A stretch of 64,000 bases of DNA, from NCBI GenBank assembly GCA_043738115.1, contig JAYSZJ010000036.1:23996-87995 (forward strand), given 5' to 3'. The translations under genes and the position numbers were made by a program. This document shows, in pieces, positions 34,674 to 58,254 of the stretch; positions within the stretch are counted from its first letter, which is position 1; each line of letters begins with the position of its first letter. The DNA is from Rhodoferax sp. (GTDB lineage Bacteria; Pseudomonadota; Gammaproteobacteria; Burkholderiales; Burkholderiaceae_C). The notes beneath the pieces were generated by a model that was not told the DNA's origin, made no database searches, and saw nothing but the letters and a program-made list of their open reading frames with translations.

Positions 34674-35216
34674 ATGGAGAAAACTATCGCAGCCCTCTTG
34701 CTATTGACAACGCTAGCGGGCACCGCACACGCACAGGTGCGCAAATGCATACTGCCGGACGGCCAGGTGACCTACAGTGACGTCTTGTGCAACAAAGGCG
34801 TTGCGAAGCAGGCCGATGTCAACCTCGTTGCCAATACGACGGACAAATCACCCGAACGTGCGCAGGCCCGCAAATTCGCCATGGAAAGGCTCATCGCCCT
34901 GGCCCGACAGAGGGAGCCCAACCGGTGCAAGTTCAGTGTGGAACACAGCATCCAGGGCGATGGGAAACAACTGGCCGAAGCGGCCACGCATGAATGCTTC
35001 TCCAACATCGTGGCTGAACAAACCGGCCACCCCGTCCGCAACGAGGCGTTTGAACGCTGGTTCGAAAACCAGCAACTGGCGCAAGGCAATCGCAGCGCAA
35101 GTGTTGCGGACCCGATCCAACAAACAACCCCTGACCAGAGCGAAAAAGGCCCCGACTGCAAAACCGCCAAACCCAACAGCGCTTGCAGTAAACCGGCAAC
35201 GCCTCGATCGTCATAG
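34674..35216 (+). CDS. Secreted protein, DUF4124-like N-terminus
   Basis: Signal peptide ending AHA followed by QVRKCILPDGQVTYSDVLC. Confidence 0.7.
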   Translation: MEKTIAALLLLTTLAGTAHAQVRKCILPDGQVTYSDVLCNKGVAKQADVNLVANTTDKSPERAQARKFAMERLIALARQREPNRCKFSVEHSIQGDGKQLAEAATHECFSNIVAEQTGHPVRNEAFERWFENQQLAQGNRSASVADPIQQTTPDQSEKGPDCKTAKPNSACSKPATPRSS

Positions 35217-35375
35217 CCCGCCTGTCACTGCGGCCCAAGGTATCTGTGCCCAACGTGCGCTAGCTGCGGTCCGTGGCGGCAATGAAGATGGGCAGCCTTG
35301 GCGACATCCTTAAGACATTCCTGGCTGTAGCCCCCGTCTATGCTATCTGAATAGCTACCAACTTTATAGCATTCC
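35215..35375 (-). pseudogene. aceE-like 3' fragment A, telescoped by internal deletions; contains the 63-nt repeat at 35309-35371
   Basis: 35225-35271 matches 55715-55761 at 39/47 nt; 35309-35371 matches 56041-56103 at 48/63; translates as CYKVGSYSDSIDGGYSQECLKDVAKAA...IAATDRS*RTLGTDTLGRSDRRA. Confidence 0.85.
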
Positions 35376-35654
35376 CAGCAAAACCGGCGAATAGCCTGTT
35401 GGATTTTCTTCTCCACGAAGCACTACGGTGCCCCCCAATTTTGGAAAACGGGTGCAGGCTCGGCATAGCCATGTCAGGGTTTTTTCACACACACCTGTCA
35501 CACAACCGTCAAATGAGGTGGTGACACTGCGCCACTCTCGGACGGTTTCAGGCGGTTTTCCGCACCACCGCCGTGTGATCGGTCGCACGATGCGTCGCCG
35601 CCGGCATTTGGGCCAATGGCAGCGCTGCCTATTTATTACTCACAAGGTTTTTTG

Positions 35655-37892
35655 ATGAAAATCGCTTTCACGTGGCACCCTGTCGTAGGTGCCTTGGCCC
35701 TTGCGTTATGCACGACTCACCTGGCTGCTCAGGCGGCCGACACCCCGATCTACACGATTCAGGGCAGTGGCCCCATCAGCCCCTTGGTCGGTCAAACCGT
35801 CACCACGACCGGCATCGTCACGAAAGTGTTGAACAACGGCTACTTTCTGCAAGACCCGGCCGGCGACGCAGACCCCGCGACCAGCGACGGCATCCTGATC
35901 TTCACCGGTAGCGCACCGACCGTGGTTGCCGGCCAGTGGGTGCGGCTCACCGGCAAAGTGGTCGAATTCAACACCGGCTCAAGCAGCAATCTCGACACCA
36001 AAGCCCGCACGGTGACCGAGCTCACCACCATTACCAATTTGACGATCTTGGGCACGGGCTACAGTACCACCCCGGTTACGGTGGCACTGCCAGAGCTGGT
36101 CAACGATGACCTGGAACGCTACGAGGGAATGCTCGTCACGCTGCGTGGCCCGCTGACCGTATCCCAAAACTATTTCCAAGCACGCTACGGCCAATTGACC
36201 TTGTCAGTCGGTGGGCGCATGGAAACACCGACCAACCGGTTTCGCCCCGGTGCGCAAGCCGCAGCCTTGGCCGAAGAAAATGCACGCCGCCGCATTGTGC
36301 TGGACGACGGTGCGACCACCCAAAACGCCAATCCAACCCCTTTCGTGGGCTTAAATGGTCTGCCCCGTGCTGGTGACACGGTGGGCGACATTACCGGCGT
36401 GATTGACTACGGCTTGGCCACTGCCAGCAGCGCCGGGGCTGGCGACTACAAAATCCACCCGGTGACAGCGCCGTCCATCATGCCGACCCACCCGCGCGCG
36501 GCCCAGCCCGAAGCGGTGGGTGGCAATGTGCGCGTTGCCTCCTTCAACGTGCTTAACTACTTCACCACTTTCACCAATGGCAACACCGCCAGCGGTCAAA
36601 CGGGCCAGGGTTGCAGCCAAGGCTCCAGCGTTACCACCTCCAATTGCCGTGGTGCCAACAGCCTGGCCGAGTTTCAGCGACAGCGCGCCAAGATTGTTGA
36701 GGCCCTCGCAACCATCAACGCGGACGCGATTGGCCTGATGGAAATTCAGAACAATGGCACTGTTGCAGCCCAAAATCTGGTCGACGCGTTGAACACCAAA
36801 GTGGGAGCTGGCGTCTACGCCGTTGTTCCCGACCCTGCTGCCGGGACCGGCACCGACGCTATCAAGGTCGCAATGATTTACAAGCCGGGCAAGCTAAGCC
36901 CCGTGGGCGCGTCACAAACTGATATGGATAGCGTCTTCAGCCGTCCGCCCCTGGCCCAGACCTTTGCCGCCGCCAACGGTGAGCGCTTTAGCTTGGTGGT
37001 CAATCACCTGAAATCCAAAGGTAGTTGTCCCGCGTCGGGTCTGGATGCAGACCAGGGTGATGGCCAGGGTTGCTGGAACGACACGCGCGTACAGCAAGCA
37101 CGCAGGCTGCGTCCATTTATTGCGAATTTGCAAATCTCCAGCGCCAGCAACGATGTGTTGCTCGTGGGCGACCTGAATGCTTACGCCCAGGAAGACCCGG
37201 TCTTTGAACTCACCAGCAATGGATTTATCGACGAGATTGGCCGTTTCAATGCCGCAGGTTATTCCTACGTTTTTGATGGTGGCGCAGGTCGGATTGACCA
37301 CGCCTTGAGCACCCCGTCTTTGTCGGCCAAGGTCAGCCGTGCAGTGCACTGGCACATCAATGCCGATGAGCAATTGGCCCATGACTACAACCTGGAGTTC
37401 AAGCAACCGGCCTGCGCCAGCTGCGCACCGGACCCCTATGCCGTGTCGCCCTACCGCTCGTCGGACCACGATCCCGTGGTGCTGGGCTTCAACCTGTACA
37501 AAACCCTGCGGGGCACCGTCGGCCGTGACACTTTGGTGGGAACCGATGGCGATGACATCATCAATGGCGCCGCAGGTGCTGACTCTCTGACGGGCGGCGC
37601 GGGCACCAATACCTTTGTGTACGAATCGCAGCGCGATGCGGGTGACACCATCACCGACTTCGTTCCTGGCAAGGACCGTATCCAACTGGCCGCACTGCTG
37701 GCCGGATTGGGCATCAACCCCGTGAGCGCCTTCAGCAGTGGTGTCGTCAAACTGGTGGCCAGTGGCACCGACACCATGCTGCAAATCGATGCTGACGGCA
37801 CCGCCGGCCCCTTGGCGGCACGCACCTTGGCCACGCTGCGCAATGTGAGCCCAGCCCTGATACAGCCTGCCCGCGATCTGGGTGTGCAGTAG
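35655..37892 (+). CDS. ExeM/NucH-family extracellular endonuclease with a C-terminal RTX/type I secretion-like domain
   Basis: IYTIQG, GYFLQD OB-fold, RVASFNVLNYF, VVNHLKSKGS, GDLNAY, SSDHDP; GGAGTNTF...DTITDF tail. Confidence 0.92.
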   Translation: MKIAFTWHPVVGALALALCTTHLAAQAADTPIYTIQGSGPISPLVGQTVTTTGIVTKVLNNGYFLQDPAGDADPATSDGILIFTGSAPTVVAGQWVRLTGKVVEFNTGSSSNLDTKARTVTELTTITNLTILGTGYSTTPVTVALPELVNDDLERYEGMLVTLRGPLTVSQNYFQARYGQLTLSVGGRMETPTNRFRPGAQAAALAEENARRRIVLDDGATTQNANPTPFVGLNGLPRAGDTVGDITGVIDYGLATASSAGAGDYKIHPVTAPSIMPTHPRAAQPEAVGGNVRVASFNVLNYFTTFTNGNTASGQTGQGCSQGSSVTTSNCRGANSLAEFQRQRAKIVEALATINADAIGLMEIQNNGTVAAQNLVDALNTKVGAGVYAVVPDPAAGTGTDAIKVAMIYKPGKLSPVGASQTDMDSVFSRPPLAQTFAAANGERFSLVVNHLKSKGSCPASGLDADQGDGQGCWNDTRVQQARRLRPFIANLQISSASNDVLLVGDLNAYAQEDPVFELTSNGFIDEIGRFNAAGYSYVFDGGAGRIDHALSTPSLSAKVSRAVHWHINADEQLAHDYNLEFKQPACASCAPDPYAVSPYRSSDHDPVVLGFNLYKTLRGTVGRDTLVGTDGDDIINGAAGADSLTGGAGTNTFVYESQRDAGDTITDFVPGKDRIQLAALLAGLGINPVSAFSSGVVKLVASGTDTMLQIDADGTAGPLAARTLATLRNVSPALIQPARDLGVQ

Positions 37893-37928
37893 TCACCCCG
37901 CAACATCTCCTCACTTGAAAGAATACCC

Positions 37929-38537
37929 ATGAAAAAAACAGCATTGAGCCTTTGGGCCCTGGTCGCGTTATTGACCACTGCCGGTCCTGCCTTCGCGCAA
38001 AGCGTGAGCAAGTTTGGCGACGTTGTGCAAACCGGAACCACGTTCAGCCTCAGCACCGCCGGTTTTGAGGAGTCCCCCCTTTCAGGCCAGGATGCTTTGT
38101 ACATTGACGCTCTGGAAACCCAGCTGGATTTGGCACCCTTCGCCTTGGGGGCGGTCGCAGTCGAAGGCTCGGCCTTCCAGCAGACCTGGAACCTCAGCGC
38201 CGGTGCCGTTGCCAGCTTTAATTGGCTGCTCAATACAGGCCTATTTGACGTTGACTTTGCCGACCGCGCGTTCGTTGTCATCAACGGAAACGTCCTGCCA
38301 TTGGCCGACGTGGGCGCGCAAACAGTGTCCGGCAGTTTCAGTTATGCCTTCACCACTGCGGGGCAATACACCTTCGCCGTCGGTGTGGTGGACGTTAACG
38401 ACGCGGCGGGTGTCTCGGTGTTGGACATCAGCAATCTTGCGGTCAGCGTGAGTGCGGTGCCGGAGCCGTCAAGCCTGGCGTTCATGCTGGCGGGTCTGTT
38501 GGGTGTCGGAGCGCTGGCCCGCACGCGCCGCGCTTAG
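37929..38537 (+). CDS. PEP-CTERM sorting-domain protein
   Basis: Signal peptide; C-terminal VPEPSSLAFMLAGLLGVGALARTRRA. Confidence 0.9.
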   Translation: MKKTALSLWALVALLTTAGPAFAQSVSKFGDVVQTGTTFSLSTAGFEESPLSGQDALYIDALETQLDLAPFALGAVAVEGSAFQQTWNLSAGAVASFNWLLNTGLFDVDFADRAFVVINGNVLPLADVGAQTVSGSFSYAFTTAGQYTFAVGVVDVNDAAGVSVLDISNLAVSVSAVPEPSSLAFMLAGLLGVGALARTRRA

Positions 38538-38635
38538 TTCGACAGGGCGAGCAGGAATGGTTTCATGGTGAACGCAAAAGGGGGCTTAACTCTATCGGCA
38601 CCAAGTATTGCATGGGTGGAATTGCAAGGGCGCGC

Positions 38636-38820
38636 CTGCGCCCTTGCCCACCTCAGTCAGAACGGCACCAGAGCCAAGCAACGCAATATCTTTAAGCGAA
38701 TGAGGACCATAGCCCCCGTCGGTGTTGCGTAAATTGCTACCAACTTTATAGCACCCATTCACTACATCGGCCTCTGCACCATCAGGCAGATCCGGACGGA
38801 CACAGAAATTATGGGTGACG
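38636..38820 (-). pseudogene. aceE-like fragment B; contains the 63-nt repeat at 38691-38753
   Basis: Translates as PDLPDGAEADVVNGCYKVGSNLRNTDGGYGPHSLKDIALLGSGAVLTEVGK versus aceE PDLPVGAEAEVVRGCYKFVSYSRSTDGGYGPNSLKEVTLMGSGAILTEVVK; core 55/63 nt identical. Confidence 0.92.
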
Positions 38821-39945
38821 CTTGCCATTCAATAGCTTGCTGACCCAGGTGTGGCGCACGAACAGCTGGTAGCTGCCCACACAGACCAACGTGGTGGCAG
38901 CGATGTTGATGGCGATTTTCAACAGGGCGGGAAGCGGCAGCTGGTACAGCAAGGCCCCAAAAAGAATGGTCAATGGGAAGTGCACCAGGTAGACCCAATA
39001 GGCGCTGTCTGACAAATAGCCCAGCACCCTATGGCGCGACTGCAGGAACTTGAGGGCCAGGCCGATGCAGGCAAAGCTCCATAGCCAGCCTGCGCAGTGG
39101 TAGCTGTAAGCGCCCAACAGCGCAGGCCCGTGCAGGTGCATCACCACAACGGTGCCAGCGTAGAACAGCAGGCCCGCGGCGGCACAGAGCGCCCAGCGCC
39201 GCTGGAACTGCGCAAACAGCTCTGCCTGCCGGCCATGCAGCACCAATCCGAAGACGAAGAACAGCCCGTTGTGCAACCACTCATTCCAGGGGGGCAGGAA
39301 TGCGCCCGAAGGCACCAAAAACCCGCGTGGGTAGCTCGCACCAGCGGCCAGCAAGGGCAATGCGAGCACCGCGAAGCCCCAGGGTTGGCGTGCCAACCAT
39401 GCAAGCACGGATGCAGACGGTGCGAACCAGGCGCGCGGCAGGCACAGCAGCGCCGAAGTGACCCCGCAGAACCACAGCAGCATCCACAAAAACCACAGGT
39501 GCATGGTGTTTGGCCCCTGGGGAACCGGCAGGTTTGCGATCACAGTTCTGTCCAGCCCCCATTGCCCCAAAGCTATCCGGTTCAGGAAGGCCAGCGCAGC
39601 GAGACCCGACGCCACCCACAGGAATGGCCAAAACAACGCGAACGGAAGCGCGAGGCGTGCCAGCCGGTGGCGCAGCAAACCGCTTGGCCCACGGGACTGG
39701 GCGAGCAGCATTGCAAAGAACCCCGCCAGGATAAAGAACGCCGGCATTCGGAACGCATGGATGGACGTCATCAGCACATCAGCCATGACCGAACGCTGCT
39801 CATCGCGCCAGATGATCGGCGAAGGCTCGAACCCGTAGATAGCGGTCACATGCAGCACGATGCCCAACCACATCAGGATGGCGCGCAGGTTGTCCAGGGC
39901 ATGGAGGCGTGGTCCGGTGGTTGCCGGTGTGGGGTGTGCGTCCAT
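38809..39945 (-). CDS. Acyltransferase-3 family membrane protein (OpgC/MdoC-like)
   Basis: LDNLRA, FRMPAFFILAGFF, HLWFLW, SAYWVYLVHFP. Confidence 0.9.
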   Translation of the reverse strand: MDAHPTPATTGPRLHALDNLRAILMWLGIVLHVTAIYGFEPSPIIWRDEQRSVMADVLMTSIHAFRMPAFFILAGFFAMLLAQSRGPSGLLRHRLARLALPFALFWPFLWVASGLAALAFLNRIALGQWGLDRTVIANLPVPQGPNTMHLWFLWMLLWFCGVTSALLCLPRAWFAPSASVLAWLARQPWGFAVLALPLLAAGASYPRGFLVPSGAFLPPWNEWLHNGLFFVFGLVLHGRQAELFAQFQRRWALCAAAGLLFYAGTVVVMHLHGPALLGAYSYHCAGWLWSFACIGLALKFLQSRHRVLGYLSDSAYWVYLVHFPLTILFGALLYQLPLPALLKIAINIAATTLVCVGSYQLFVRHTWVSKLLNGKRHP

Positions 39946-40037
39946 GGTTGCAGCGAATTTCGTCACCTGTAGAAAAATCTACAGCTGAAGAAATCGAATA
40001 GGAACGCCACTCACCACACAAGCGATACGGACAATAC

Positions 40038-41786
40038 TCAGCTACCTGAGTCGTAACTCAACAAATCGAAAGTCATGTTGGGCAGGAATTTCTCTCGCAC
40101 AGTGAACACGAAAGGTTTACCCTGCGCGAGCTTGGTCGGCATCATGGCTTCGGTGTATTTGTCGACATAGACAATCAGGATCTTGCCCGAATCGCTCTTG
40201 AACTCTACGGCTCGCCCGCCCGGAGGCGTACGGTCGACAAGTCCTTTCTTCATCTTGTCGCTTTCCTTGTATTCCTTCGGACCATCGAGCGAGGTCACAA
40301 CACCCTTGACGCGAACGATTTTTCTCCAGACCAGAGACTTGTTCAGATCGGTGCGACCCGTCGCGGACTTGTTCGCTTCCTTTTCTGCATCGGCGACTTT
40401 CAGCATTTCGTCAATGCTTTGGTAGCGCGTCACCCACTCCCAGTTTTTGCTATCACGCCGAATGTAGTCACTGGCATCGGCAACCCGACTGCTCCATCCT
40501 GCCGCAACACTGGGGCCGCGCTTTGCGTTTTCCATGAATCCGCGCAGTGGCGACTTGATCTGCTTGGCAATGCGCTCGTCGTCTATTTCTTGGTGCAATC
40601 CTGCGCCGAGTGCGACGCCGACGTCGTTCTGGTTCGGTGCAATGACAAGTACCGCACCGTTGCCAACCTCCAGTTTTCCAACGCGCAGCTGGCGCATCAT
40701 GTCGTAAGCGTACTGATCGGCTGTCTTGCCGTGTAAGTCTTTGACGATCAGCGTCACAATTTCGACGTTGTTCTTGTTGGCGTACTCGTACATGTCTTTT
40801 GACAAACGGGCTTTGACTGTCTGGTCAAGAATGCCCAATTCGTCGAAAACGAACCGATCAAATTTTGCTGGGATATCCGTGGCACTGGGCACCGGCAATA
40901 CATCCATCTTGCCGACTGGACTGATGTTGGGGCCGGCAGATGCGACGGTTTCCTTTTCAGCCTGCTGAGGAGGCTTGATAACCGATGGAGGCACCGCAGC
41001 CTTATCCGTGGGGATGGCTGCAGTCTTGGATGGAGCGCTGGCTAACAACGCCGCGCCGTTGCAGTCCTGCGACTGCTGGGCGCAAGCCTGGTTCCAACCC
41101 TGCTGGATCGCCGAAACCCGCATGCTGCGCCCTGGATGGGTTTTGCTCTGCGACTCCGGCACCAGTGTCTCAATCGCTTTCTGCGCATCGGCACGCGCGG
41201 CGCCCATTTTGTACAACACAAAACCGCTAAATTTATCGGCTTCCAGTTCGGTCGGTGGCTGGCTGCCCCCAGGCATGATGGTATGGCCGGAAAGGTGATG
41301 GCCGATCTCGTGCGCCATGATGCTGATGGGCGCCCAGTTGTTGTTTTGCGTCGCCTGGCGGACTTGCGACATGAAATCCTTGTTGTACGCAATAACGCGC
41401 CGGGGCAACTTGTCCGGCCCGACCAGGATAATGGCCGCGGCATTCGGCACCTTCGCTTCAACCACGTCAAAATTCTGTGGCAGGCCAGTGAATTTCATGA
41501 TGTCCGCCACTACGCGCGCACCGTCATTCCCCCCACCGGATGACAGATTCTTCGCCGCCACATCAAGCGGTGTACCGTCGTATGAACATGCCTGCAGCGT
41601 GTCGGCAATTTCTGCCGCTATCTGGCTCTTGGTTGGTGCTGCCACGGCCACAGCCTGCGCACTTGCCTTCGCCGTAGACGGATTTGATTTGGGCGCTGGC
41701 GCATCCTCGCCCCGCCCACATCCAGCGATCAATGTTGCGATTGCTGGTAGCAAGAGGGCACTGCTGATGCTATGTTTAAACTTCAT
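40038..41786 (-). CDS. Lipoprotein: M48-like zinc peptidase (HEIGH) fused to a TPM domain and an unknown C-terminal domain
   Basis: Lipobox IAGC; VPNAAA, HEIGHH, ELEAD, THP; VFDELGILD...EIVTLIV...GNGAVLVIA...GVALGAGL. Confidence 0.8.
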   Translation of the reverse strand: MKFKHSISSALLLPAIATLIAGCGRGEDAPAPKSNPSTAKASAQAVAVAAPTKSQIAAEIADTLQACSYDGTPLDVAAKNLSSGGGNDGARVVADIMKFTGLPQNFDVVEAKVPNAAAIILVGPDKLPRRVIAYNKDFMSQVRQATQNNNWAPISIMAHEIGHHLSGHTIMPGGSQPPTELEADKFSGFVLYKMGAARADAQKAIETLVPESQSKTHPGRSMRVSAIQQGWNQACAQQSQDCNGAALLASAPSKTAAIPTDKAAVPPSVIKPPQQAEKETVASAGPNISPVGKMDVLPVPSATDIPAKFDRFVFDELGILDQTVKARLSKDMYEYANKNNVEIVTLIVKDLHGKTADQYAYDMMRQLRVGKLEVGNGAVLVIAPNQNDVGVALGAGLHQEIDDERIAKQIKSPLRGFMENAKRGPSVAAGWSSRVADASDYIRRDSKNWEWVTRYQSIDEMLKVADAEKEANKSATGRTDLNKSLVWRKIVRVKGVVTSLDGPKEYKESDKMKKGLVDRTPPGGRAVEFKSDSGKILIVYVDKYTEAMMPTKLAQGKPFVFTVREKFLPNMTFDLLSYDSGS

Positions 41787-41847
41787 AAATTAGCCTTTGC
41801 AAAGAAGGAGACAGGAATTCAGACAAGTAACGCGCCAATGAAAGCGT

Positions 41848-42639
41848 TCATTTCATTTGGTAGTAAACGATTTCCATCACAAGCTTGCCATACACATGGG
41901 TGACAGCCCATTTGAACAAGCTGAACAACGCGCCTGCAATGACGAGCTTGTGCCATTCTTTTCGAACATCGATCAGGAAGAACTGCTTGAACGCTATCGT
42001 GATCAGCGCGAGATTGACCAGATACATGTAGAAGCGGGAATATTCCTTATGGAGTGCAAGCACTTCGGGGCTACCCATTATGAGAAGCGGAAGCTGGTTC
42101 GCAATATGAAAACAAATGCTCAAAAAATGGCAATAAATGGCGAGGACCAGGAACTCCGTCAGGTTATAGCCGAGTCGTCCGCGGAAGACTGCATACGCGC
42201 TGAAGAAGATAGCGATGATTCCGAGCGAGAACGACCATTTTGAATATTCGCGCACTAGGGCGAACGCTTTGGATGCCTCAACGCTGCTATGCACGGAGGT
42301 CAGGTACTGAGTCTGATTCAAGACGACAAGCAATACACCAATCGCGATTAAAAGCAACTTGAGCGGATGGACATGTTTCTTACGCTTACCGAGAACATAT
42401 TCGCGTGCGACGGTACCGGGACTCGTCAACAAACGATATGCCGAGCGCACTACCTCCATCTCAAACCAGCGCACCATTTCCCACGCCTCTTTACCAACCT
42501 GAACACGCGTGAGCCGTGCCACTTTCTTTTGACCGCAGGATGAGCAGAACGGTCCGCTCAGGGAGGCCCCGCAATTCAGGCAAATCTCGCCAGCGAAACC
42601 AACGTTCTCAACGGAGGACAAAGGCGTTTCGGAACTCAT
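41848..42639 (-). CDS. DUF3667-like membrane protein with an N-terminal Zn ribbon
   Basis: CLNCG...FCSSCGQK, PGTVAREYVLGKRKK..HPLK; lower GC than the flanks. Confidence 0.8.
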   Translation of the reverse strand: MSSETPLSSVENVGFAGEICLNCGASLSGPFCSSCGQKKVARLTRVQVGKEAWEMVRWFEMEVVRSAYRLLTSPGTVAREYVLGKRKKHVHPLKLLLIAIGVLLVVLNQTQYLTSVHSSVEASKAFALVREYSKWSFSLGIIAIFFSAYAVFRGRLGYNLTEFLVLAIYCHFLSICFHIANQLPLLIMGSPEVLALHKEYSRFYMYLVNLALITIAFKQFFLIDVRKEWHKLVIAGALFSLFKWAVTHVYGKLVMEIVYYQMK

Positions 42640-42916
42640 GCTTCGGATGCCGTGGCTATGCCTGGTGTCAGCATCGCCTTACATGCAGGGCTGGAAATAA
42701 CCAGACTTACCGGTCTATTCTGACAATGGCGATTCATTGAGTAAGTGCAAATTTTGATGCGTCGAATCATGCCATAAAGGTCACATTCACCAGTGGCGGC
42801 AATCGGGGGATTCTGCAGTATCGTTTGGCAATACCGCTAGTAGCCGTAGTGGAGCCCCGACGATCTTTTCCACGAAGCCGTGTAGCGGGGCTGTAAACCA
42901 ATTGCGGCGCACAGTC

Positions 42917-43143
42917 TCACTGGCGCGCTGTGGCACCTTGAAGAGCATCTCAGTGAACCGCTGTCAATTAAGGAACCCGCGCCCCCACTGGTCGTCAAAC
43001 TCAGCAGTCGGCTTGGAATCAATCACTTCGACAAGTGCCTTACCCGCCTTGACCTAATCACCGATGCGCTGGGATACCGTGACTAACATGTCGCGGTAGG
43101 CTTTGAGGTCGGCCTTGTTCGCCACCGGGCCATGACCAGGTAT
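42917..43143 (-). pseudogene. Diverged duplicate of the 3' end of the MBL hydrolase gene (45794-46021)
   Basis: IPGHGPVANKADLKAYRDML...; GAGGTCGGCCTTGTTCGCCACCGGGCCATGACCAGG is identical in both copies; premature TAG at 43054-43056. Confidence 0.92.
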
Positions 43144-43234
43144 CGCAATTTCAAGCTTGTGCATAAGCGCTCCTTTGTTGCAATCAGGGATCACAATTTA
43201 GATTCCCTACGCGGCATTGTTTATGTCGCAATGT

Positions 43235-43846
43235 TTAGTCTGTGGATGGTGCGTATAGCCGGACCTGTGGGCCATAACCAGCGTCAGGACAGAGAGTGAA
43301 GCAGTCATCCGTAAAGTTTTTCATTGATCGCGCATACAGCAAAAGAAAGTCGTATCTGTCGTTGGACAGTTCGTCGCAGATCTCGTCATCTGACATTCCT
43401 TTTGTTTCCAACCCCATTTGTTCAAGAATCTCATTGGTGTTCAATGTCAGGCTTGCCCCTAGATACGACTCATGATTAATCCGGCCGATCCATCCTCTAT
43501 GCTTTCCCTTTAGGATTTCAACATGCTCATCGCCAACATAGTCAGTACCGATGATGAAAAAATAGTCGCTTAATGGGTGCGATTGGTTATTTTTGATCAG
43601 GTCGTATTCTTCGTCGTCATGGTCAAGGCTGTAAAAATATCCAGCTTCGGCATCTCCGAATATTTCGCTAGCTTCAAGATATTTTTCGTTGCCAAGATCT
43701 TCCAAAAAGAGGGCCTCGAAAAAGCCGTTTTGCGTCAATAAAAAAGTCGCGTACGAATCCGAAAAGTTATACCGTTTCTGCAGCTCTCTAACTCTGCTGG
43801 AAATCGGTAAAGCAAATCCAAATGGATTGGGAAATTTTATTTTCAT
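43235..43846 (-). CDS. SMI1/KNR4 (SUKH)-like immunity-type protein
   Basis: RELQKRYNFSDSYATFLLTQNG N-terminal pattern, IIGTDYVGD; acidic; markedly AT-rich. Confidence 0.6.
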   Translation of the reverse strand: MKIKFPNPFGFALPISSRVRELQKRYNFSDSYATFLLTQNGFFEALFLEDLGNEKYLEASEIFGDAEAGYFYSLDHDDEEYDLIKNNQSHPLSDYFFIIGTDYVGDEHVEILKGKHRGWIGRINHESYLGASLTLNTNEILEQMGLETKGMSDDEICDELSNDRYDFLLLYARSMKNFTDDCFTLCPDAGYGPQVRLYAPSTD

Positions 43847-49656: not shown

Positions 49657-50406
49657 TCACTTGGCTTTTGTTTGGTGGCGATGGATGATGGCCGCGTAGT
49701 CTTTGGTTTTTCGGAAATCAACATAACTTGCCTGAAACTTGGCAGCCAAATCAGCCGAGTTATTTGCCTTTTTGGAAAAGGCCAGATAGGCTTTCGACAC
49801 CCAGACGGTTGGATCCAACAGCACCAGGTCGTCACGGGATTTCAGTCCAAAGAAATCGTCAACATTGATCACGGCAACGTCGTAGCGTTTGTTTTTCATC
49901 ATGGCTGCCATGGTGGCTAAGTCTTTGACCTCGTACTTTTGAGCCTTGGCAACATCCGGGCCATAGTTGTAACCAATGAGAGTAAAAAGCGTCTTGCCCG
50001 TCAAAAACGCTTGCACATTGCCATCGAAGAATATTTTGTCGGCGTTGTCTTTGTGAATCATGAACCGCATTTCTACTTGGCTCAAGACATTGTTCGGCAG
50101 AAAACGACCCCACTGTTCCCTTGCCGGGCTGCGCGAGATGTAGCTGATGGCGTCGCACTCGCCAAACTCCACGCAACGTTGTGCGCGCGGCCAAGGGAGC
50201 TCGCTCCACAGAACTCTGTGACCGATTCTGGCCGCAACGGCTTCAACCACCTCAACATGTATACCCACTAACTTGCCGTCGACGTGCATCTCGTAGGGAG
50301 GATAGTCTTCGCTGCCGCGCGCCACGCGGATTTCGTTGGGATGGATTTGGCCGCACGCCGCCACAGCCCACCAAAACAAGAGTAGAAAGGAGAAATGCCT
50401 TTTCAT
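49657..50406 (-). CDS. Orphan periplasmic substrate-binding protein (family 3-like)
   Basis: DYPPYEM...GIHVEVV, LPWPRAQ. Confidence 0.8.
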   Translation of the reverse strand: MKRHFSFLLLFWWAVAACGQIHPNEIRVARGSEDYPPYEMHVDGKLVGIHVEVVEAVAARIGHRVLWSELPWPRAQRCVEFGECDAISYISRSPAREQWGRFLPNNVLSQVEMRFMIHKDNADKIFFDGNVQAFLTGKTLFTLIGYNYGPDVAKAQKYEVKDLATMAAMMKNKRYDVAVINVDDFFGLKSRDDLVLLDPTVWVSKAYLAFSKKANNSADLAAKFQASYVDFRKTKDYAAIIHRHQTKAK

Positions 50407-50485
50407 GTCAGTTCCCAACAATTGGGCATCAGGTTAACCGCGGCGCGGCGATGTTTCAATTGGTATTGAAACTGGCACCTTCCGC

Positions 50486-51247
50486 CTATTTTTTTGTCGC
50501 TACGAGCGTGAACATAGGGATTTGTGCGTTCTGGTGTTCACACTTTTGCGAATGAAATGAAACGCGGGCTTCAGTAAAACCCAAAAGCCCCAAAGCCGCT
50601 ACAAAGAACTGTGGCGAAAACTGCCACCAAGTATCAAACTGCTTTGCCCCGAGGTGCGGCATGAAGCGGCAAATGGGTTCGGGGCCGAGGTCGGCATTGT
50701 GGTTGTCCACCACAATCATGGTTTGCGTCACACGTCGCGACAGGCTTTCGAGCAGCGAGAAGGGTGAACGGGTGTGGAGTAACACACATGCCAGAACCCC
50801 GATGTCGTGGTTACCGATTTCGCTAGGGATATTGCACGGATCGGCTTCAAATAATTTCGCTTGCGAGCGATGAAGCGTATGGCAAAACCAGAATGAATTT
50901 CTGATCCGCTCAATGTGTTTGCCAAACTCAACACGCACCGCATCTGCATCGACGCCATGGAATGGAACCGTATCCCAAAGATGGGACATCGACGGTTCCA
51001 GGCAACTGACCGTTGCGCCAGCACGTTCCATATGGAACGACAAAAAACCGCTTGCGGGGCCTATCTCGAGCACGCTGCGGCCTTTGAAATCCACATTTCC
51101 CAAATACGTTTCAGGTGACGGACGCAAATCCCACTGCCCCGTGATTTCACCGGTCGGCAAGGTCTGAGAGTGGTAGAAGTCGCAATCGTGCAGCTCTGGA
51201 GCGCGCGGTTCCACGCGTCGGTACGTTGACTGGTTTGGTGGTTGCAT
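50486..51247 (-). CDS. Class I SAM-dependent methyltransferase
   Basis: VLEIGPASGFLSF motif I, VLLHTRSPF. Confidence 0.82.
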   Translation of the reverse strand: MQPPNQSTYRRVEPRAPELHDCDFYHSQTLPTGEITGQWDLRPSPETYLGNVDFKGRSVLEIGPASGFLSFHMERAGATVSCLEPSMSHLWDTVPFHGVDADAVRVEFGKHIERIRNSFWFCHTLHRSQAKLFEADPCNIPSEIGNHDIGVLACVLLHTRSPFSLLESLSRRVTQTMIVVDNHNADLGPEPICRFMPHLGAKQFDTWWQFSPQFFVAALGLLGFTEARVSFHSQKCEHQNAQIPMFTLVATKK

Positions 51248-51268
51248 GGTGTCTAAGAAGTATGCCGT

Positions 51269-52201
51269 TCAAACCGGCGAGACCGGAGACTCACCCGCAA
51301 GGTGGCGCCGCGCATTCTCTACGAAGCGATCCACCGAGGCCTGCACGGCCTCCGGCGACCAACCCGCCACATGCGGCGTGAGCACCACGGTGTCGAGGTC
51401 CAGCAGCTCGGCGGGCGGCGCGGGCTCACTCTCGTACACGTCCAGGCCTGCACCTGCCAGACGCCCCTCACGCAGCGCCTGCGCCAGAGCCGCGGTGTCG
51501 ATCACGCTGCCGCGTGCGATGTTGACCACGTAGCCACGCGGCCCCAAAGCATCCAGCACTTGAGCGTTGATGAGGTGCTGCGTGCCCTGGCCGCCGGGCG
51601 TGGCCACCAGCAAAAAATCCGCCCACGCGGCAAGCGACGCCACGTCATCAAAGTAACGGTAGGGCACGTCGGTGCGCGCGCTGCGGTTGTGGTAACCGAC
51701 CTGCAGGTCAAAGCCCAGCGCGCGGCGGGCGATCTTGCTGCCGATGGTGCCCAGGCCAATAATGCCCAGCCGTTTGTGCGAGACGTTGGGCGGCAACGGC
51801 AGGGACGTGCGCCACACACCCGCCCGAGTGGCAGCGTCGAGTTTGGGGATGCCGCGAACCGCGGCGATCAGCAGGCCAACAGCATGGTCCGCCACACAGT
51901 CGTCATTGGTGCCCGCCCCATTGGCCACCAAGATGCCACGTGCCTTGGCATACGCGACGGCGATGTTTTCGTAGCCCGCGCCCAGTGCACACACCAGTGT
52001 GAGTGTCGGCAACCCATCCATCTGCGCAGCCGTCAGGCCAACGGACCCTATGGTGAGCACCACCCGAACACCTGCACCGCGTGTGGCTATTGCCCCCGCG
52101 TGTCCCTGGGCATCTGGCGCATAGACCAGTTCGAAAGTCTCGGACAGTTGGGCGCGGTGTGCTTGTGAGAGAAATGAGAGGGCGAGCAGGACTGGTTTCA
52201 T
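51269..52201 (-). CDS. 2-hydroxyacid dehydrogenase
   Basis: GIIGLGTIG, VNIARG, LDVYESEP, TPHVAG. Confidence 0.93.
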   Translation of the reverse strand: MKPVLLALSFLSQAHRAQLSETFELVYAPDAQGHAGAIATRGAGVRVVLTIGSVGLTAAQMDGLPTLTLVCALGAGYENIAVAYAKARGILVANGAGTNDDCVADHAVGLLIAAVRGIPKLDAATRAGVWRTSLPLPPNVSHKRLGIIGLGTIGSKIARRALGFDLQVGYHNRSARTDVPYRYFDDVASLAAWADFLLVATPGGQGTQHLINAQVLDALGPRGYVVNIARGSVIDTAALAQALREGRLAGAGLDVYESEPAPPAELLDLDTVVLTPHVAGWSPEAVQASVDRFVENARRHLAGESPVSPV

Positions 52202-52297
52202 GGCGGACGCAAAGGGTATTCAGCGGAATCGTGGCCAAGTATGGCATTGGATGGGGCTGCAACGGCAATGATTGACGCAAACAAAATGCAGCAACGC

Positions 52298-52439: not shown

Positions 52440-53441
52440 ATGCGCCTCAGCCAAGCCGCCGCGTTCGTCGTCACGCTCAGTCTCGCGCCACTGGCCCAGG
52501 CGGCCAAGATGCCGGAGAAAGACTCCGCAAAAGGACAGGAACCGAGTCTGGTGACCCGCTTCCAGGGATCGAAGATGGTCGGCTACGCGGTCAAGGAATT
52601 CGACGAAGTCATGCTGCAGGCGGGCAAACGCACGCGAGACAAGGACGGTAAGGCGGTCGACAACCTGCTTCGTCTGGAAGGGAAATACACGCGCATGGCC
52701 TACAACTACGCGCCAGATCGTTCCTCGCTGGAAGTGATGCGCAATTACCAGGCGGCGCTCGACAAGGCCGGCCTGAAAACCCTGTTCGCCTGTGCGGGCG
52801 TGGAGTGCGGCTACGAGTTCGGCACCTATTTCCTCGATCACCGGCTCGGCAACAACTACATCGTCGGCTCGTCCGATTTCTGGTCCCCGTTCAATTACGG
52901 CCGCCTTGACATGCGCTATCTGCTGTCCAAGGGAACGCTGTCGAATGGCACCGTGGTGCATGCGGCGATCTATGTCGTCGATCCCAAGCAGGACAACAAC
53001 GGCGGCGTGTACGTGGAGGTGGTCGAGGCGAAAGCCATGGAAACGGACAAGGTCGCGGCAACGCTGAATGCGGGCGAGATGGCCAAGGGCATCGCGGCCG
53101 AGGGTAAAGTGGCCATCTACGGCGTCTACTTCGACACAGACAAGGCCGACATCAAACCGGAATCGAAAGCGGCGCTCGGCGAAATGGCCACGCTGCTGCA
53201 GAAAGACGCTGGACTCCAAGTGCACGTGGTCGGCCATACCGACAACCAGGGTTCGATGGCGCGCAATCTGGAGCTGTCTCAAAAGCGCGCCGAGTCCCTC
53301 GTCAAGGCATTGACCAGCGACTACAAGATCGATGGCAAACGCCTCAGCGCCAAAGGGATCGCCTCGTATGCACCGGTGGCAACCAACGACAACGAGGCCG
53401 GGCGCGGCCAGAACCGCCGCGTGGAGCTGGTCAAACAATAA
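52440..53441 (+). CDS. Secreted OmpA-family protein with a DUF4892-like N-terminal domain
   Basis: Signal peptide, SSLEVMRNY, VYFDTDK, VVGHTDN, NRRVELV. Confidence 0.88.
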   Translation: MRLSQAAAFVVTLSLAPLAQAAKMPEKDSAKGQEPSLVTRFQGSKMVGYAVKEFDEVMLQAGKRTRDKDGKAVDNLLRLEGKYTRMAYNYAPDRSSLEVMRNYQAALDKAGLKTLFACAGVECGYEFGTYFLDHRLGNNYIVGSSDFWSPFNYGRLDMRYLLSKGTLSNGTVVHAAIYVVDPKQDNNGGVYVEVVEAKAMETDKVAATLNAGEMAKGIAAEGKVAIYGVYFDTDKADIKPESKAALGEMATLLQKDAGLQVHVVGHTDNQGSMARNLELSQKRAESLVKALTSDYKIDGKRLSAKGIASYAPVATNDNEAGRGQNRRVELVKQ

Positions 53442-53462
53442 CAGCGTGCTGTTGTCCGGCCC

Positions 53463-53517: not shown

Positions 53518-54360
53518 CTACACTTTGTTGCAGCGCACTCCACTTTCTGCGCCAAGATGCGTATCCAGGAACCCAATCACCTTTTCGGCATACGGGACCG
53601 GATGCGCTGCAAAGGCATGGGTATGTTCAGCGTCTGGGACTTGCCAGAATTCAGTGTGAGTCTTTTGTTGCAAGGTTCGCCACAACAACTTACCGTCTTC
53701 AACCGGGGTAAATTCGTCGGACTCGCCATAAATCAATAAGAGACTTGGACTGCCCACCAAATGTTCGGCGGCGTAGGTGGGGCGCAAGCTGCGCTCACCA
53801 GCGGGATAGATCAATTTGGAAAGCTGAATACCCCACTTCGGAACTGGATAGCGACGCCAAAAGTGCAACAGGGTCGGAAACGCCGACTCCAGAACGGCCG
53901 CCTTAAAAGGATGATGGGGCTGAGCCATGGCGCACACACTCATGGCCGCACCCATCGAGGCTCCCAGAACCGCTACTGACAAGTCCGGGTATCGCGCTTG
54001 CAAAGCCTGCCCGGCGGCCAGTACGTCCAATGGATAGTCCATTGTGGTCGAGGTGCTTTCACCAAAGCCATTCAAGTCAAACACCATCACGTGGTAGCCA
54101 GCCCGACGCAGCATTTCACTGTGCCCGTATTTCATCCAAAAGCCTTTGGCTACGACCCCCATGGGATGCGACATCAACACCGCTCCTTTGGCCGTCGCAG
54201 TGTGTGCAGGCCCTAGCAGGGCTGCAAGAGTAGCGCCGGATTCGCTTGCAATCTGCAATCGCTGCCAATGCTGCCGATCAGCCTGATCTGGCCAACGCCA
54301 GGGTTTGACAAAGCGACCAAAAAAAGGCTTTTTGAACAGTCGATAGGCGGTGTTTTTCAT
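53518..54360 (-). CDS. Alpha/beta hydrolase
   Basis: FDLNGFGES, GASMG, YGESD, HTHA. Confidence 0.85.
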   Translation of the reverse strand: MKNTAYRLFKKPFFGRFVKPWRWPDQADRQHWQRLQIASESGATLAALLGPAHTATAKGAVLMSHPMGVVAKGFWMKYGHSEMLRRAGYHVMVFDLNGFGESTSTTMDYPLDVLAAGQALQARYPDLSVAVLGASMGAAMSVCAMAQPHHPFKAAVLESAFPTLLHFWRRYPVPKWGIQLSKLIYPAGERSLRPTYAAEHLVGSPSLLLIYGESDEFTPVEDGKLLWRTLQQKTHTEFWQVPDAEHTHAFAAHPVPYAEKVIGFLDTHLGAESGVRCNKV

Positions 54361-54516
54361 TCAGGCAATCCTTGTCAATTTGAACGCTCAACGCCAAGAC
54401 TGACGCGGCGAGACCGTACTGTAGGCATTGACATCAACCACCGCCATAGGCAAAAATGACTAATTACATGCCATTTCTGCCACCCATCCTCGACCCCCAA
54501 GACCCGTATCTAAACC

Positions 54517-55542
54517 ATGCACATCACGGTATTGATGGCCGATCAATGTTCATCGACCAGCGTCGCCGCCACCCTTGAATTTTTTGAAACTGCCAATGTT
54601 CTGCATCGCCATGTCGGCACCAAAAATGTCCGTTCCGATGTGGAACATGCCAACTTGTTCAAAGTTGAAACTGCCTCGGTAGACGGCCGGGGCGTCATGT
54701 GCACCGGCGGACTTCAATTAACGCCGGATAAGGCCTTTGCCGACGTACTCAACCCGCAGCTCATCATTGTTCCGGGGTTCATGTTTAATATTCTGGGCGT
54801 CTTGCCATCGCTGAACAAGATGGTTCAATGGTTGCAACAGCAGCATCAACGGGGCAGTTATATCGCAAGCATGTGTACGGGAGCCTTCGTGACCGCCCAG
54901 GCGGGATTATTGGATGGTCGCTGCGCCACGACACACTGGGCTTTTAGTGAGCAGTTTGCTCAACGCTTCCCTCTGGTGAATTTGCAAACCGAGCGCACAG
55001 TGACCGAAGACGGCCAAATTTTGTGTTCCGGTGGATCCACCAGTGGCACGGATCTATTGCTGCATTTGATTCGAAAATTTGCATCGCCTCAATTGGCTGC
55101 CGAATGTGCAAAGAAATTACTGGTGGACATTTCTGCGCGCAGCCAGACGCCGTATGCCTGCACTACATTCAAGAAAAGTCACACTGACGCTGAGATTTTG
55201 AGAATTCAGATCTGGCTAGAAAATCGTATTGGCAATAACATCTCGATGGAGCAGGTGGCGGCCGATTTTGGTCTAAGCATGCGCAACTTTATCCGCCGAT
55301 TTAAAGCGGCCACCCACCAAACTCCTATCCTGTATCTGCAAAACCTGCGGATTGAAAAGGCCAAACATCTATTGGAGAGCAGCCAACTGGCGTTCGACCA
55401 AATTACCCTAAAGGTGGGTTATGAAGATGGGAATTCGTTTCGGCGCCTGTTCAAACAGAGGGTAGGTTTGGTTCCCAGCACTTACCGCAAGCGGTTTGAG
55501 AATGTTCGCAACGAACAGCCGTTAGGAAGTTCAACCCTCTGA
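54517..55542 (+). CDS. GlxA-type AraC regulator (DJ-1/PfpI plus HTH)
   Basis: SMCTGAF, ATTHW, RNFIRRFK, GYEDGNSFRRLFK. Confidence 0.92.
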   Translation: MHITVLMADQCSSTSVAATLEFFETANVLHRHVGTKNVRSDVEHANLFKVETASVDGRGVMCTGGLQLTPDKAFADVLNPQLIIVPGFMFNILGVLPSLNKMVQWLQQQHQRGSYIASMCTGAFVTAQAGLLDGRCATTHWAFSEQFAQRFPLVNLQTERTVTEDGQILCSGGSTSGTDLLLHLIRKFASPQLAAECAKKLLVDISARSQTPYACTTFKKSHTDAEILRIQIWLENRIGNNISMEQVAADFGLSMRNFIRRFKAATHQTPILYLQNLRIEKAKHLLESSQLAFDQITLKVGYEDGNSFRRLFKQRVGLVPSTYRKRFENVRNEQPLGSSTL

Positions 55543-55629
55543 AGCAATATTGCTCTGCAACGCTTTGGAATTATGAACCTGCAACATGCAACGTGAGGGC
55601 TTTAGCCCGTCGACCTGTGCCCACTCGGT

Positions 55630-58254
55630 TTACGGTTGCTGCAGCATGGTCAACGCCGCCCGCACAATACTCGCAGCATCCACACCAAAGTAACCCCGCA
55701 GCGCAGCACGTGTATCACTGCGGCCAAAACCATCCGTGCCCAGCGTGAGGTAGCTGCGGTCAGCTGGCAAGAAGGCGCGAACAGTTTCCGGCACGGCGCA
55801 GACGTAGTCGGTGGCGGCGATGATGGGGCCGGCGCTGCCTTGCAACTGCTGCTCAATAAACGGCACGGGGGCCGATGCATCTCCGGCCAATTGGCGTTGC
55901 AGGCTGTCGCGGCCATCACGGGCCAGCTCGCTCCAGCTGGTGACGCTGTACACGGTCACGTCTACGCCCTGCTCCGCCAACAACTGCGCTGCCTTGACCA
56001 CTTCGGTCAGGATTGCTCCAGAGCCCATCAGCGTAACCTCCTTAAGCGAATTAGGGCCATAGCCCCCGTCGGTGCTGCGTGAATAGCTAACAAATTTATA
56101 GCATCCCCGAACCACCTCAGCCTCTGCCCCTACCGGCAGATCGGGCTGGGCGTAGTTCTCGTTCATCAGCGTGACGTAGTAAAAAACGTCTTTCTGCTCG
56201 ATCAACATTTCACGCATGCCGTGGTCGATGATGACGGCCATTTCACCGGCAAAGGCCGGGTCGTAGGCCTTGCAGTTGGGGATGGTGGCCGCTACCAAAT
56301 GGCTGCTGCCGTCCTGGTGTTGCAGGCCCTCGCCACCCAGAGTCGTGCGGCCCGACGTAGCGCCCAGCAGGAAACCACGCGAGCGCTGGTCTGCGGCGGC
56401 CCAGATCGCATCACCCACGCGTTGGAAGCCGAACATGGAGTAATAGATGTAGAACGGCAGCATGGCCAAGCCGTGCACGCTGTAGCTGGTGGCGGCTGCC
56501 GTCCAGCTGGCGATGGCACCGGCCTCGGAGATGCCCTCTTCCAGGATTTGTCCGTCCATGGCTTCGCGGTAGCTGAGCACCGAGCCTATGTCTTCGGGCT
56601 CGTAACGCTGACCCACGCTTGAGTAAATGCCGACCTGCTTGAACAGATTGGCCATGCCAAAGGTGCGCGCCTCGTCAGCGACGATGGGCACAATGCGTGG
56701 CCCCAGTTCCTTGTCCTTCAGTAGATTGCCCAGCATGCGCACAAAGGCCATGGTCGTGGACATTTCTTTACCGGCCGCCGCCGTGGCAAAGGCGGCGTAG
56801 CTGCTTAGCGCGGGCACAGGCACTACATCGGCCACCGTCTCGCGGCGCGGCAGGTAGCCGCCGAGTTGCGTACGTTTGGTGTGCAGGTAGCGCATCTCTG
56901 CACTGTCGTCTGCGGGTTTGAAGAACTCGAGGTTGGCGGCCTGTGTATCGGTCAGTGGCAGGTTGAAGCGGTTGCGGAATTCGATCAGCGCGGCTTCATC
57001 CAGCTTCTTCTGGCTGTGCGTGGTCATCTTTCCCTGCCCGGCTTGGCCCATGCCATAACCCTTCTTGGTGTGCGCCAGGATGACGGTGGGCTGGCCGCTG
57101 TGCTGGGCGGCTGCGGCGTAGGCGGCGTGGATCTTGACGATGTCGTGGCCGCCGCGTTTGAGGCGGTCGATCTGCTCGTCGGTCATGCCCTGCGCCAGTT
57201 GCTTCAGCGCTTCGTTTTGGCCGAAGAAACTGTCGCGGTTGAAGCGACCATCCTTGGCGGCAAAAGTTTGCATCTGGCCGTCTACCGTGTTGGCAAAGGC
57301 CTGGACCAATGCGCCGGTGGTGTCGCGTGCAAACAGGCCGTCCCAATCGCTGCCCCATACCAGTTTGATGACGTTCCAGCCTGCGCCGCGGAACAATTTT
57401 TCCAGCTCGTCGATGATGCGGCCATTGCCACGCACCGGGCCGTCCAGGCGTTGCAGGTTGCAGTTGACGACCCAAACCAGGTTGTCCAGCTTCTCGCGGG
57501 AGGCCAGTGTCAACGCGCTCATGCTTTCGGGTTCGTCCATCTCGCCGTCACCAAACACACCCCACACTTTTCGCCCGGCGCAATCCAGCAACTGGCGGTG
57601 TGACAGGTAACGCATGAAGCGTGCGTGGTAGATGGAGCTGATAGGCCCAATGCCCATGGAGCCGGTGGGGAACTGCCAGAAGTCCGGCATCAGCCAGGGG
57701 TGGGGGTAGCTGGAGAGGCCGCGTGCGCCCTGGTCTGGCGCGGTGATCTCTTGGCGGTAATGGGCCAGGTCGGCTTCGTTCAAGCGCCCTTCCAGAAAGG
57801 CCCGTGCGTAAACACCCGGGGCGCTGTGCGGCTGGAAGAACACCAGGTCACCACCGCGCGAGCCTTTGAAGAAATGGTTGAAGCCCACCTCAAACAAATC
57901 CGCTGCACTGGCGTAGCTGGCGATGTGACCGCCCAGTTCGCCATAAGCGCCATTGGCACGCGCCACCATGGCCAGCGCGTTCCAGCGCATCAGCGATGCG
58001 AGCTTTTCTTCGATCGCCAGGTCACCCGGAAAGCTGCCCTGCTGGTCGACCGGGATCGTGTTGACATACGGCGTGGCCAGCTCGGGCGACCAACCTACCT
58101 GGGCCGTGTGCGCCAGGCGCACCAGTTGGTCCAGCACAAAACGCGCGCGTTCGGCACCATGGGTGGCAACAACGGACTGGAAGGCTTGTGTCCACTCGGC
58201 TGTTTCAGTGGGATCAGTGTCGACCGGGGGTGCGGGAATGTGGGAGGTATTCAT
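55630..58254 (-). CDS. Homodimeric 2-oxoacid dehydrogenase E1 (AceE/MdeB-like), stand-alone
   Basis: GGHIAS, FQPHSAPG, FPTGSMG, GDGEMDE..S ThDP motif, NCNLQRLDG, GEGLQH, LGTDGFGRSD. Confidence 0.93.
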   Translation of the reverse strand: MNTSHIPAPPVDTDPTETAEWTQAFQSVVATHGAERARFVLDQLVRLAHTAQVGWSPELATPYVNTIPVDQQGSFPGDLAIEEKLASLMRWNALAMVARANGAYGELGGHIASYASAADLFEVGFNHFFKGSRGGDLVFFQPHSAPGVYARAFLEGRLNEADLAHYRQEITAPDQGARGLSSYPHPWLMPDFWQFPTGSMGIGPISSIYHARFMRYLSHRQLLDCAGRKVWGVFGDGEMDEPESMSALTLASREKLDNLVWVVNCNLQRLDGPVRGNGRIIDELEKLFRGAGWNVIKLVWGSDWDGLFARDTTGALVQAFANTVDGQMQTFAAKDGRFNRDSFFGQNEALKQLAQGMTDEQIDRLKRGGHDIVKIHAAYAAAAQHSGQPTVILAHTKKGYGMGQAGQGKMTTHSQKKLDEAALIEFRNRFNLPLTDTQAANLEFFKPADDSAEMRYLHTKRTQLGGYLPRRETVADVVPVPALSSYAAFATAAAGKEMSTTMAFVRMLGNLLKDKELGPRIVPIVADEARTFGMANLFKQVGIYSSVGQRYEPEDIGSVLSYREAMDGQILEEGISEAGAIASWTAAATSYSVHGLAMLPFYIYYSMFGFQRVGDAIWAAADQRSRGFLLGATSGRTTLGGEGLQHQDGSSHLVAATIPNCKAYDPAFAGEMAVIIDHGMREMLIEQKDVFYYVTLMNENYAQPDLPVGAEAEVVRGCYKFVSYSRSTDGGYGPNSLKEVTLMGSGAILTEVVKAAQLLAEQGVDVTVYSVTSWSELARDGRDSLQRQLAGDASAPVPFIEQQLQGSAGPIIAATDYVCAVPETVRAFLPADRSYLTLGTDGFGRSDTRAALRGYFGVDAASIVRAALTMLQQP
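56041..56103 (+). repeat. 63-nt in-frame repeat, copy in the aceE-like gene, read in the reverse orientation (CYKFVSYSRSTDGGYGPNSLK)
   Basis: CTTAAGCGAATTAGGGCCATAGCCCCCGTCGGTGCTGCGTGAATAGCTAACAAATTTATAGCA. Confidence 0.75.

Follow-up and report, generated by a model that had tools for sequence, protein, structure and literature searches.

An accessory E1 gene in Rhodoferax whose 3' end is a hotspot for inserted DNA, probably built by serial tail displacement

We analyzed a 64,000-nucleotide (nt) stretch of DNA from Rhodoferax sp. (assembly GCA_043738115.1, contig JAYSZJ010000036.1, positions 23,996 to 87,995 of the forward strand); this whole stretch is referred to as the window. It contains an intact gene for an E1 enzyme and, downstream of that gene, an array of accessory genes. 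Fragments of the 3' end of the E1 gene, which we call scars, lie between modules of the array. The scars mark a hotspot that is real, appears to be enzyme-free, and is of a known but little-studied kind. Genomes, contigs and loci are referred to below by our own numbers (G, C and L, respectively).

The array begins at the E1 gene, which has the following position and domains.

55630..58254, minus strand: intact accessory E1 gene, 874 amino acids, 2,625 nt (Pfam PDH_E1_M and Transketolase_N/C; NCBIfam TIGR03186)

We found that this gene is an accessory, mdeB-type paralog of the homodimeric pyruvate dehydrogenase E1 and is not the housekeeping aceE. It scored 1463.6 bits against the NCBIfam model TIGR03186 ('AKGDH_not_PDH'; cut-off 1408.3). 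The housekeeping aceE of the same genome is on another contig (C48) and is 54% identical to the E1 gene. An ortholog of the E1 gene was present in about 40 of the 159 genomes of the genus, and two genomes (G002 and G023) have two full copies. A preliminary description of the window had proposed that the tail of a housekeeping gene serves as a landing pad. That part of the proposal was wrong: the landing pad is the tail of an accessory gene. Between species, the E1 gene is 87-90% identical and the housekeeping aceE only 82-84.5% identical. The E1 gene is therefore a good anchor for homology across species, and its conservation may help explain the position of the hotspot. The C-terminal 3-9 residues of E1 and the position of its stop codon (the last ~7 codons; window 55630-55650) vary in every species compared. 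This is as expected if each insertion rewrites the very end of the gene.

We used the E1 gene as a query in blastn (word size 7) against the window and against the whole 5.0-Mb assembly. Positions within the gene are given as q, the plus-strand offset from 55630. Four co-oriented matches were found in the window.

53461-53495, minus strand: scar A (q80-112; 29/33 identical; genome-wide E value 0.002)
52288-52374, minus strand: scar B (q123-219; 79% identity; E value 3e-6)
38636-38795, minus strand: scar C (q355-516; 78% identity over 162 nt; genome-wide E value 5e-29; includes a repeat that is also in the gene)
35215-35376, minus strand: scar D, telescoped, with 35215-35272 (q61-132; 83% identity; E value 1e-5) joined to 35303-35376 (q407-479)

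All four scars are intergenic, co-oriented with the E1 gene, derived from its last ~520 nt, and located downstream of it. The preliminary description had reported four degenerate, co-oriented pieces of the gene's tail, and the coordinates found by blastn are close to the ones it gave. The order of the scars along the array is not colinear with the E1 gene, and scars A and B have no sequence in common. Scar A is the weakest of the four when taken alone. It is backed by a 105-nt scar in G086 at the same position, beside the same hydrolase gene. Scar C encodes an E1-like peptide (68.5% identity over 54 amino acids by tblastn) and has a ratio of nonsynonymous to synonymous divergence (dN/dS) of 0.26 relative to the gene. 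For scars B and D, the alignment to foreign alleles of the E1 gene is longer than that to the resident tail. In G021, scars are found at the position of scar D, beside the same DUF4124 gene.

The scars are specific to this locus. Outside it, the parts of the scars that are not repetitive matched only the housekeeping paralog aceE on C48 (whole-genome blastn). A genome-wide self-BLAST at a strict threshold was too coarse, detecting only scar C at the locus and many tandem paralogs elsewhere, and we used a per-gene scan of tails instead. For each of 3,407 long open reading frames (ORFs), the final 600 nt were compared to the 45 kb downstream on the same strand, and dispersed repeats were discarded. 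At least one partial copy was found for 71 of the 3,407 genes, mostly tandem paralogs. The E1 gene alone had four separate co-oriented downstream copies, placing it at the top of the 3,407 ORFs. We considered that the scars might be chance matches or an artefact of repeats, and rejected this because the non-repeat parts are locus-specific and the E1 gene is a single outlier. The concentration of scars at the locus, which the preliminary description had named as evidence that would favour it, is supported.

Part of the similarity between the scars and the gene is due to a dispersed repeat of ~65 nt.

56036..56108, minus strand: copy of the dispersed repeat, in frame within the E1 gene, encoding the peptide CYKFVSYSRSTDGGYGPNSLKE

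There are about 262 full-motif copies of this repeat genome-wide, on both strands, with the core TAGCCCCCG ... GCTAnnAAnTTnATAGC. It matched no Rfam family. The copy in the E1 gene (q412-475) adds about 20 residues to the loop between the middle and C-terminal domains of the protein. Similar CYxFxSYSRxxD inserts are present in E1 orthologs of several Comamonadaceae genera, and are missing from the orthologs of other genera and from the housekeeping aceE. The repeat makes scars C and D look more like the gene than they otherwise would; it explains only q412-475. Scar C extends 40-55 nt past the repeat on both sides. The second half of scar D could pass for a free copy of the repeat; it groups with a longer, E1-derived scar in G128. 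The window contains just three copies of the repeat, one each in the E1 gene, scar C and scar D, and the limits of the scars do not coincide with it.

The DNA between the scars is a succession of modules, listed here from the E1 gene outward.

53518..55542: cargo module 1, an AraC/DJ-1 regulator (54517-55542, plus strand) and an alpha/beta hydrolase (53518-54360, minus strand) (Pfam)
52440..53441, plus strand: cargo module 2, an OmpA-domain protein (Pfam OmpA and DUF4892)
50486..52266, minus strand: cargo module 3, a 2-hydroxyacid dehydrogenase (51269-52201), an ORF of 253 amino acids and the upstream region (Pfam)
40038..50421, minus strand: mixed cargo, comprising an M48/TPM protein, DUF3667, unknown ORFs, DUF7832, a metallo-beta-lactamase (MBL)-fold hydrolase, subunits of a molybdenum cofactor (MoCo) aldehyde oxidase, and a solute-binding protein (Pfam)
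42916..43143, minus strand: displaced copy of the 3' end of the MBL-fold hydrolase gene (230 nt, 85% identical to 45793-46021)
38809..39966, minus strand: cargo module, an acyltransferase-3 (MdoC-like; Pfam, NCBIfam)
38541..38631, minus strand: 91-nt remnant of a second copy of the start of the 2-hydroxyacid dehydrogenase gene and its upstream region, abutting scar C (75% identical to 52176-52266)
35616..38537, plus strand: cargo module, a secreted Exo_endo_phos nuclease/phosphatase with RTX repeats and a PEP-CTERM protein (Pfam)
34617..35216, plus strand: DUF4124 gene, the neighbour on the far side of the array (Pfam, synteny)

The preliminary description had placed each scar at a junction between unrelated gene blocks. 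What it had taken for a single 13-kb block is a composite of several modules. The remnant of a second dehydrogenase copy beside scar C indicates that the array once held two junctions between a gene tail and this dehydrogenase. The MBL-fold hydrolase gene is a second gene inside the array with the same pattern of tail displacement: the two copies of its 3' end are separated by a 2.6-kb insert containing three genes. The DUF4124 gene is also beside or near the array in G021, G023, G086, G128 and G179. A 287-nt non-coding segment upstream of it (window 34207-34493) recurs at 83-86% identity in G086, directly after the stop codon of the E1 gene (L049 17596-17881), and in G128, beside a scar (L047 4543-4830).

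We compared the locus to those of other genomes of the genus. Eight other species have co-oriented scars on the contig that carries the E1 gene, and the cargo differs among them. G086, G097, G129 and G179 have one scar each, as does G024, in which the scar adjoins the 2-hydroxyacid dehydrogenase. G021 and G128 have two each, and G066 has at least seven scar sites. Thus, variable cargo separated by E1 scars, as anticipated by the preliminary description, is found well beyond this genome. The content downstream of the E1 gene is highly variable between species and the modules are in different orders. The AraC and hydrolase module followed by a scar is also present in G086 (92% identical). Both G086 and G179 have the acyltransferase module (87-88% identity); the copy in G179 also has a scar after it, on the same side. 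The dehydrogenase module was found in five genomes (G023, G024, G086, G097 and G179) in differing contexts, including G023, where the dehydrogenase lies directly against the E1 gene with no scar between them. Judged from these comparisons, the modules assort independently: the AraC and hydrolase module and its scar are shared with G086, and the acyltransferase and its scar with G179. The mixed cargo (40038..50421) was not found in the relatives that were fetched. In G013, the conserved flank (near window position 20187) adjoins the E1 gene, and in G030 the gene is followed by 28 kb of unrelated genes.

G097 has what looks, from its sequence, like a fresh event. A single gene for an ice-binding-like protein (Pfam PF11999, E value 1e-61; L052 10282-11088) follows the E1 gene and is itself followed by an 860-nt scar, which is open except for one frameshift. 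This newest-looking insert exemplifies the gain of an ecologically meaningful gene at the hotspot. Most of the differences between the resident tail and the scar are at synonymous sites (dS 0.48, dN 0.07, dN/dS 0.15). Both tails were therefore once working alleles, each of a different lineage, and a foreign tail came in with the inserted DNA.

G066 has the largest number of scars. They are spread over about 38 kb, between cassettes of one or two genes (LprI, redoxin, DUF1003 and PLD) and a kdp operon, and they extend beyond the E1 stop codon, into copies of the sequence after it. One cassette and part of a scar have been duplicated recently, as an 805-nt repeat at 97.6% identity. This duplication indicates that scars keep recombining with one another. 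G066 also has an E1-tail fragment outside the array (L051 5778-6147; G066:C1:949777-950147, plus strand), with 67% amino acid identity to the accessory E1 and 35% to aceE. It is 4 kb from the housekeeping aceE, on the opposite strand, and it indicates that scars can end up away from the hotspot. E1-tail fragments were also found on other contigs in G091, G109, G017 and G149.

The arrays were sought in other genera, and nothing comparable was seen. Among 72 orthologous loci in other genera, there were five marginal co-oriented downstream matches (E values 1e-5 to 5e-5) compared to three in the controls, which were upstream or opposite-strand matches. A search for related loci found no close relative; all were at most 84% identical. 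A tree of scars and alleles, which had been suggested in the preliminary description, was built from 243 columns. At its poor resolution, the scars fall in their own clade of alleles and no donor can be named.

We looked for recombinases and for a constant core at the module borders. Pfam analysis revealed no recombinase domain in the long ORFs from 22 to 62 kb of the window or in the cargo ORFs scanned in the arrays. No PF00589 integrase was found on any array contig in eleven genomes (that of the window and ten relatives), including the fresh-looking G097 and G066. The sole tyrosine integrase on the window's contig is just past the left edge of the window (C36:23227-23688), and four tRNA genes are near that edge (window 517-910 and 7110-7193). 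Together, these have the look of an ordinary tRNA-linked island; it lies about 55 kb away from the E1 gene and is apparently unrelated to the scars. A search for repeats at the module borders revealed no shared attachment (att) core, no terminal inverted repeats, and no other repeat besides the copies of the E1 tail. The scars have 5' limits anywhere from q81 to q867; this scatter, and the existence of scars with no sequence in common, indicate that there is no constant core. The lack of a core, of integrases on array contigs, and of recombinases in the scanned cargo argues against a site-specific element, and agrees with the preliminary description, which had found no integrase or transposase in the span. 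An integron was also considered and rejected: there is no integrase in the window, and the only element repeated at module borders is the gene tail.

Based on these results, we think that the E1 gene has a recombination hotspot at its 3' end, where foreign DNA has been inserted several times by displacement of the gene's tail, and we put the probability of this explanation at roughly 60%. Incoming DNA from a related species would carry the last few hundred bases of its own E1 allele plus whatever followed them. One homologous crossover within the gene would join the resident 5' part to the incoming tail, leaving the gene intact. The far end would be joined inside the resident tail, either illegitimately at a microhomology or by a second homologous crossover with a scar on the incoming DNA. 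Downstream of the new cargo, the old tail would persist as a nonfunctional fragment. Repeated rounds, along with deletions, duplications and exchanges between scars, would yield modules separated by co-oriented tail fragments, apparently with no dedicated recombinase. The fragments in the window and in G066 all map to the last 870 nt or less of the 2,625-nt gene, with none from its first two thirds. The core of the preliminary description, in which the locus grew by repeated insertion of a tail plus cargo with the old tail left downstream, is supported by the scars, by G097 and by the relatives. Its idea of one scar per event does not strictly hold: scars have been duplicated along with cassettes (in G066) and eroded by deletions. 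It had also named greater decay with distance as possible support; scars farther from the gene are not steadily less identical to it. Since module order varies as well, the array is not a clean chronological record.

Some observations weigh against this explanation. Sliding-window identity along the E1 gene revealed no sharp mosaic breakpoint, only a drop over the last ~500 nt, which is the most divergent part of the gene. Serine recombinases and transposases were not seen in a screen that covered the long ORFs with Pfam, and an unrecognized recombinase is possible among the several cargo ORFs that lack a Pfam hit (G021, G129 and G030). The arrays are confined to one clade of the genus, a restriction that tail displacement does not explain. 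We infer the type of join at the far end (microhomology or homologous arms) and the route by which DNA enters the cell, and junctions have been seen only between species. G179, for example, is without the AraC and hydrolase insert of G086, and G023, G179 and G086 are different species (82-90% identity) whose junctions are unreadable base by base.

The same final structure could be produced by a circle. Recombination between the gene tail and a scar would loop out a non-replicating circle containing the tail and cargo, and a single homologous crossover would reintegrate it into the tail of the same genome or a different one, duplicating the tail. Direct repeats able to loop out such circles are present, and the 97.6% duplication in G066 shows that scars do recombine with one another. 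Nonetheless, we consider this Campbell-type route unlikely. No way is known for a circle to be passed intact from cell to cell, yet transfer between species is required by the diverged working allele in G097, and no circular form has been observed. The simplest account is tail displacement by linear DNA: one homologous crossover takes place in the gene, and the far end is joined illegitimately or by a second crossover with a scar that is already there. The preliminary description had invoked Campbell-type integration of a circle, and its product is indeed that of the linear route; the two cannot be told apart from sequence data. We regard as quite improbable a second alternative, tandem accretion of site-specific integrative elements at the 3' end of the E1 gene, much as in CIME arrays, with integrases that have since been lost or a recombinase acting in trans. 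It is well known that integrative elements can bring a replacement 3' end and leave the displaced one behind, and activity of one element family would be expected to give a hotspot limited to one clade. Some cargo ORFs are also without known domains. However, no tyrosine integrase was found on the array contigs of the eleven genomes, even in those with fresh-looking arrays, the scattered 5' limits and the lack of overlap between scars A and B leave no constant core, and the inserts include single ordinary genes (for the ice-binding protein, LprI and OmpA).

It is also conceivable that the fragments are left over from additional full-length copies of the gene, or from tandem duplications in place, that were later broken up by unrelated insertions. 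Two genomes do have two full E1 genes, and the dispersed repeat in the tail could promote unequal crossing-over. This alternative is largely refuted by the restriction of all fragments to the 3' third of the gene. In addition, the order of the fragments is not colinear with the gene, their limits do not coincide with the repeat, and the scar and resident tail in G097 differ mainly at synonymous sites. We give it very little credence. A further possibility goes beyond serial tail displacement. Scars might serve as portable homology arms, such that units of tail, cargo and scar move between species by two-sided homologous recombination into tails or scars. This suggestion is tentative and we think it somewhat doubtful. 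If true, it would explain why modules travel with their own scar (G086 and G179) and why the arrays are confined to a clade in which the gene is unusually conserved.

The locus resembles some known systems. For the type VI secretion system (T6SS) effector-immunity arrays of Vibrio cholerae, the mechanism put forward is homology-facilitated illegitimate recombination, in which a homologous anchor is combined with an illegitimate join at the far end and no site-specific recombinase takes part (Kirchberger et al. 2017, PMC5361080). Displacement of C-terminal ends has been described for Rhs proteins (Jackson et al. 2009, PMC2935791, as cited in PMC5361080). As in Rhs, T6SS and orphan CdiA C-terminal (CdiA-CT) arrays, an intact gene is followed here by co-oriented orphan 3' copies that were pushed downstream by incoming modules with a new 3' end. 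The orphan copies here are likewise 3'-only and on the same strand (last 870 nt or less), and an incoming module brought its own foreign 3' allele (G097; dS 0.48, dN/dS 0.15). In contrast to Rhs, CDI (contact-dependent growth inhibition) and T6SS loci, which have a variable C-terminal toxin tip and toxin-immunity cargo, the gene here is a metabolic E1 with a conserved tail, and the cargo consists of regulators, hydrolases, OmpA, a dehydrogenase, kdp genes and an ice-binding protein. The locus is therefore not a member of the polymorphic-toxin family. Because there is no immunity cargo, the persistence of scars and old cargo cannot be put down to retention of old immunity genes.

Insertion with long target duplication (Nobusato et al. 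2000; Furuta, Abe and Kobayashi 2010, PMC2853133) also involves no mobility gene and leaves long target repeats of variable length, from 46 to about 420 bp. These insertions often overlap the 3' end of a gene, are mostly of restriction-modification systems, and include cases in Acidovorax and Burkholderia (PMC2853133). Similarly, the array here has flanking target repeats longer than 30 bp (33-162 nt long in the window; as long as 860 nt in G097) and no mobility gene, as judged by Pfam analysis of the scanned cargo ORFs and searches for PF00589. Those insertions are single and have near-identical repeats, whereas here the target has been reused (4 to at least 7 scars, in several species) and the alleles have diverged.

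Integrases drive serial integration at the ends of genes in tRNA and tmRNA islands, in staphylococcal cassette chromosome (SCC) elements at rlmH, and in phage 21 and e14 at icd. As in those islands, the 3' end of a gene is a reusable landing site here, the incoming element supplies a new end, and displaced ends record the events. Unlike the junctions of those islands, which have a recombinase gene and a constant core, the junctions here yielded neither when both were looked for.

There are many hotspots of gene transfer without a recognizable mobile element, and how DNA enters at such sites has largely been inferred. The insertions at this locus can be read from the displaced tails of a metabolic gene in no fewer than nine species, counting this genome and eight relatives. 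Co-oriented, 3'-only fragments of an upstream gene provide a signature for finding such hotspots and for partly ordering the acquisitions within them. The set of species described here, some with complete genomes (e.g., G086 and G066), is offered for tests of mechanism. If scars do function as portable arms, then the E1 tail would be the attachment site of a self-reinforcing, recombinase-free, integron-like pool of cassettes that runs on RecA. Tail displacement, which has been described for toxin loci, also builds islands of ordinary accessory genes.

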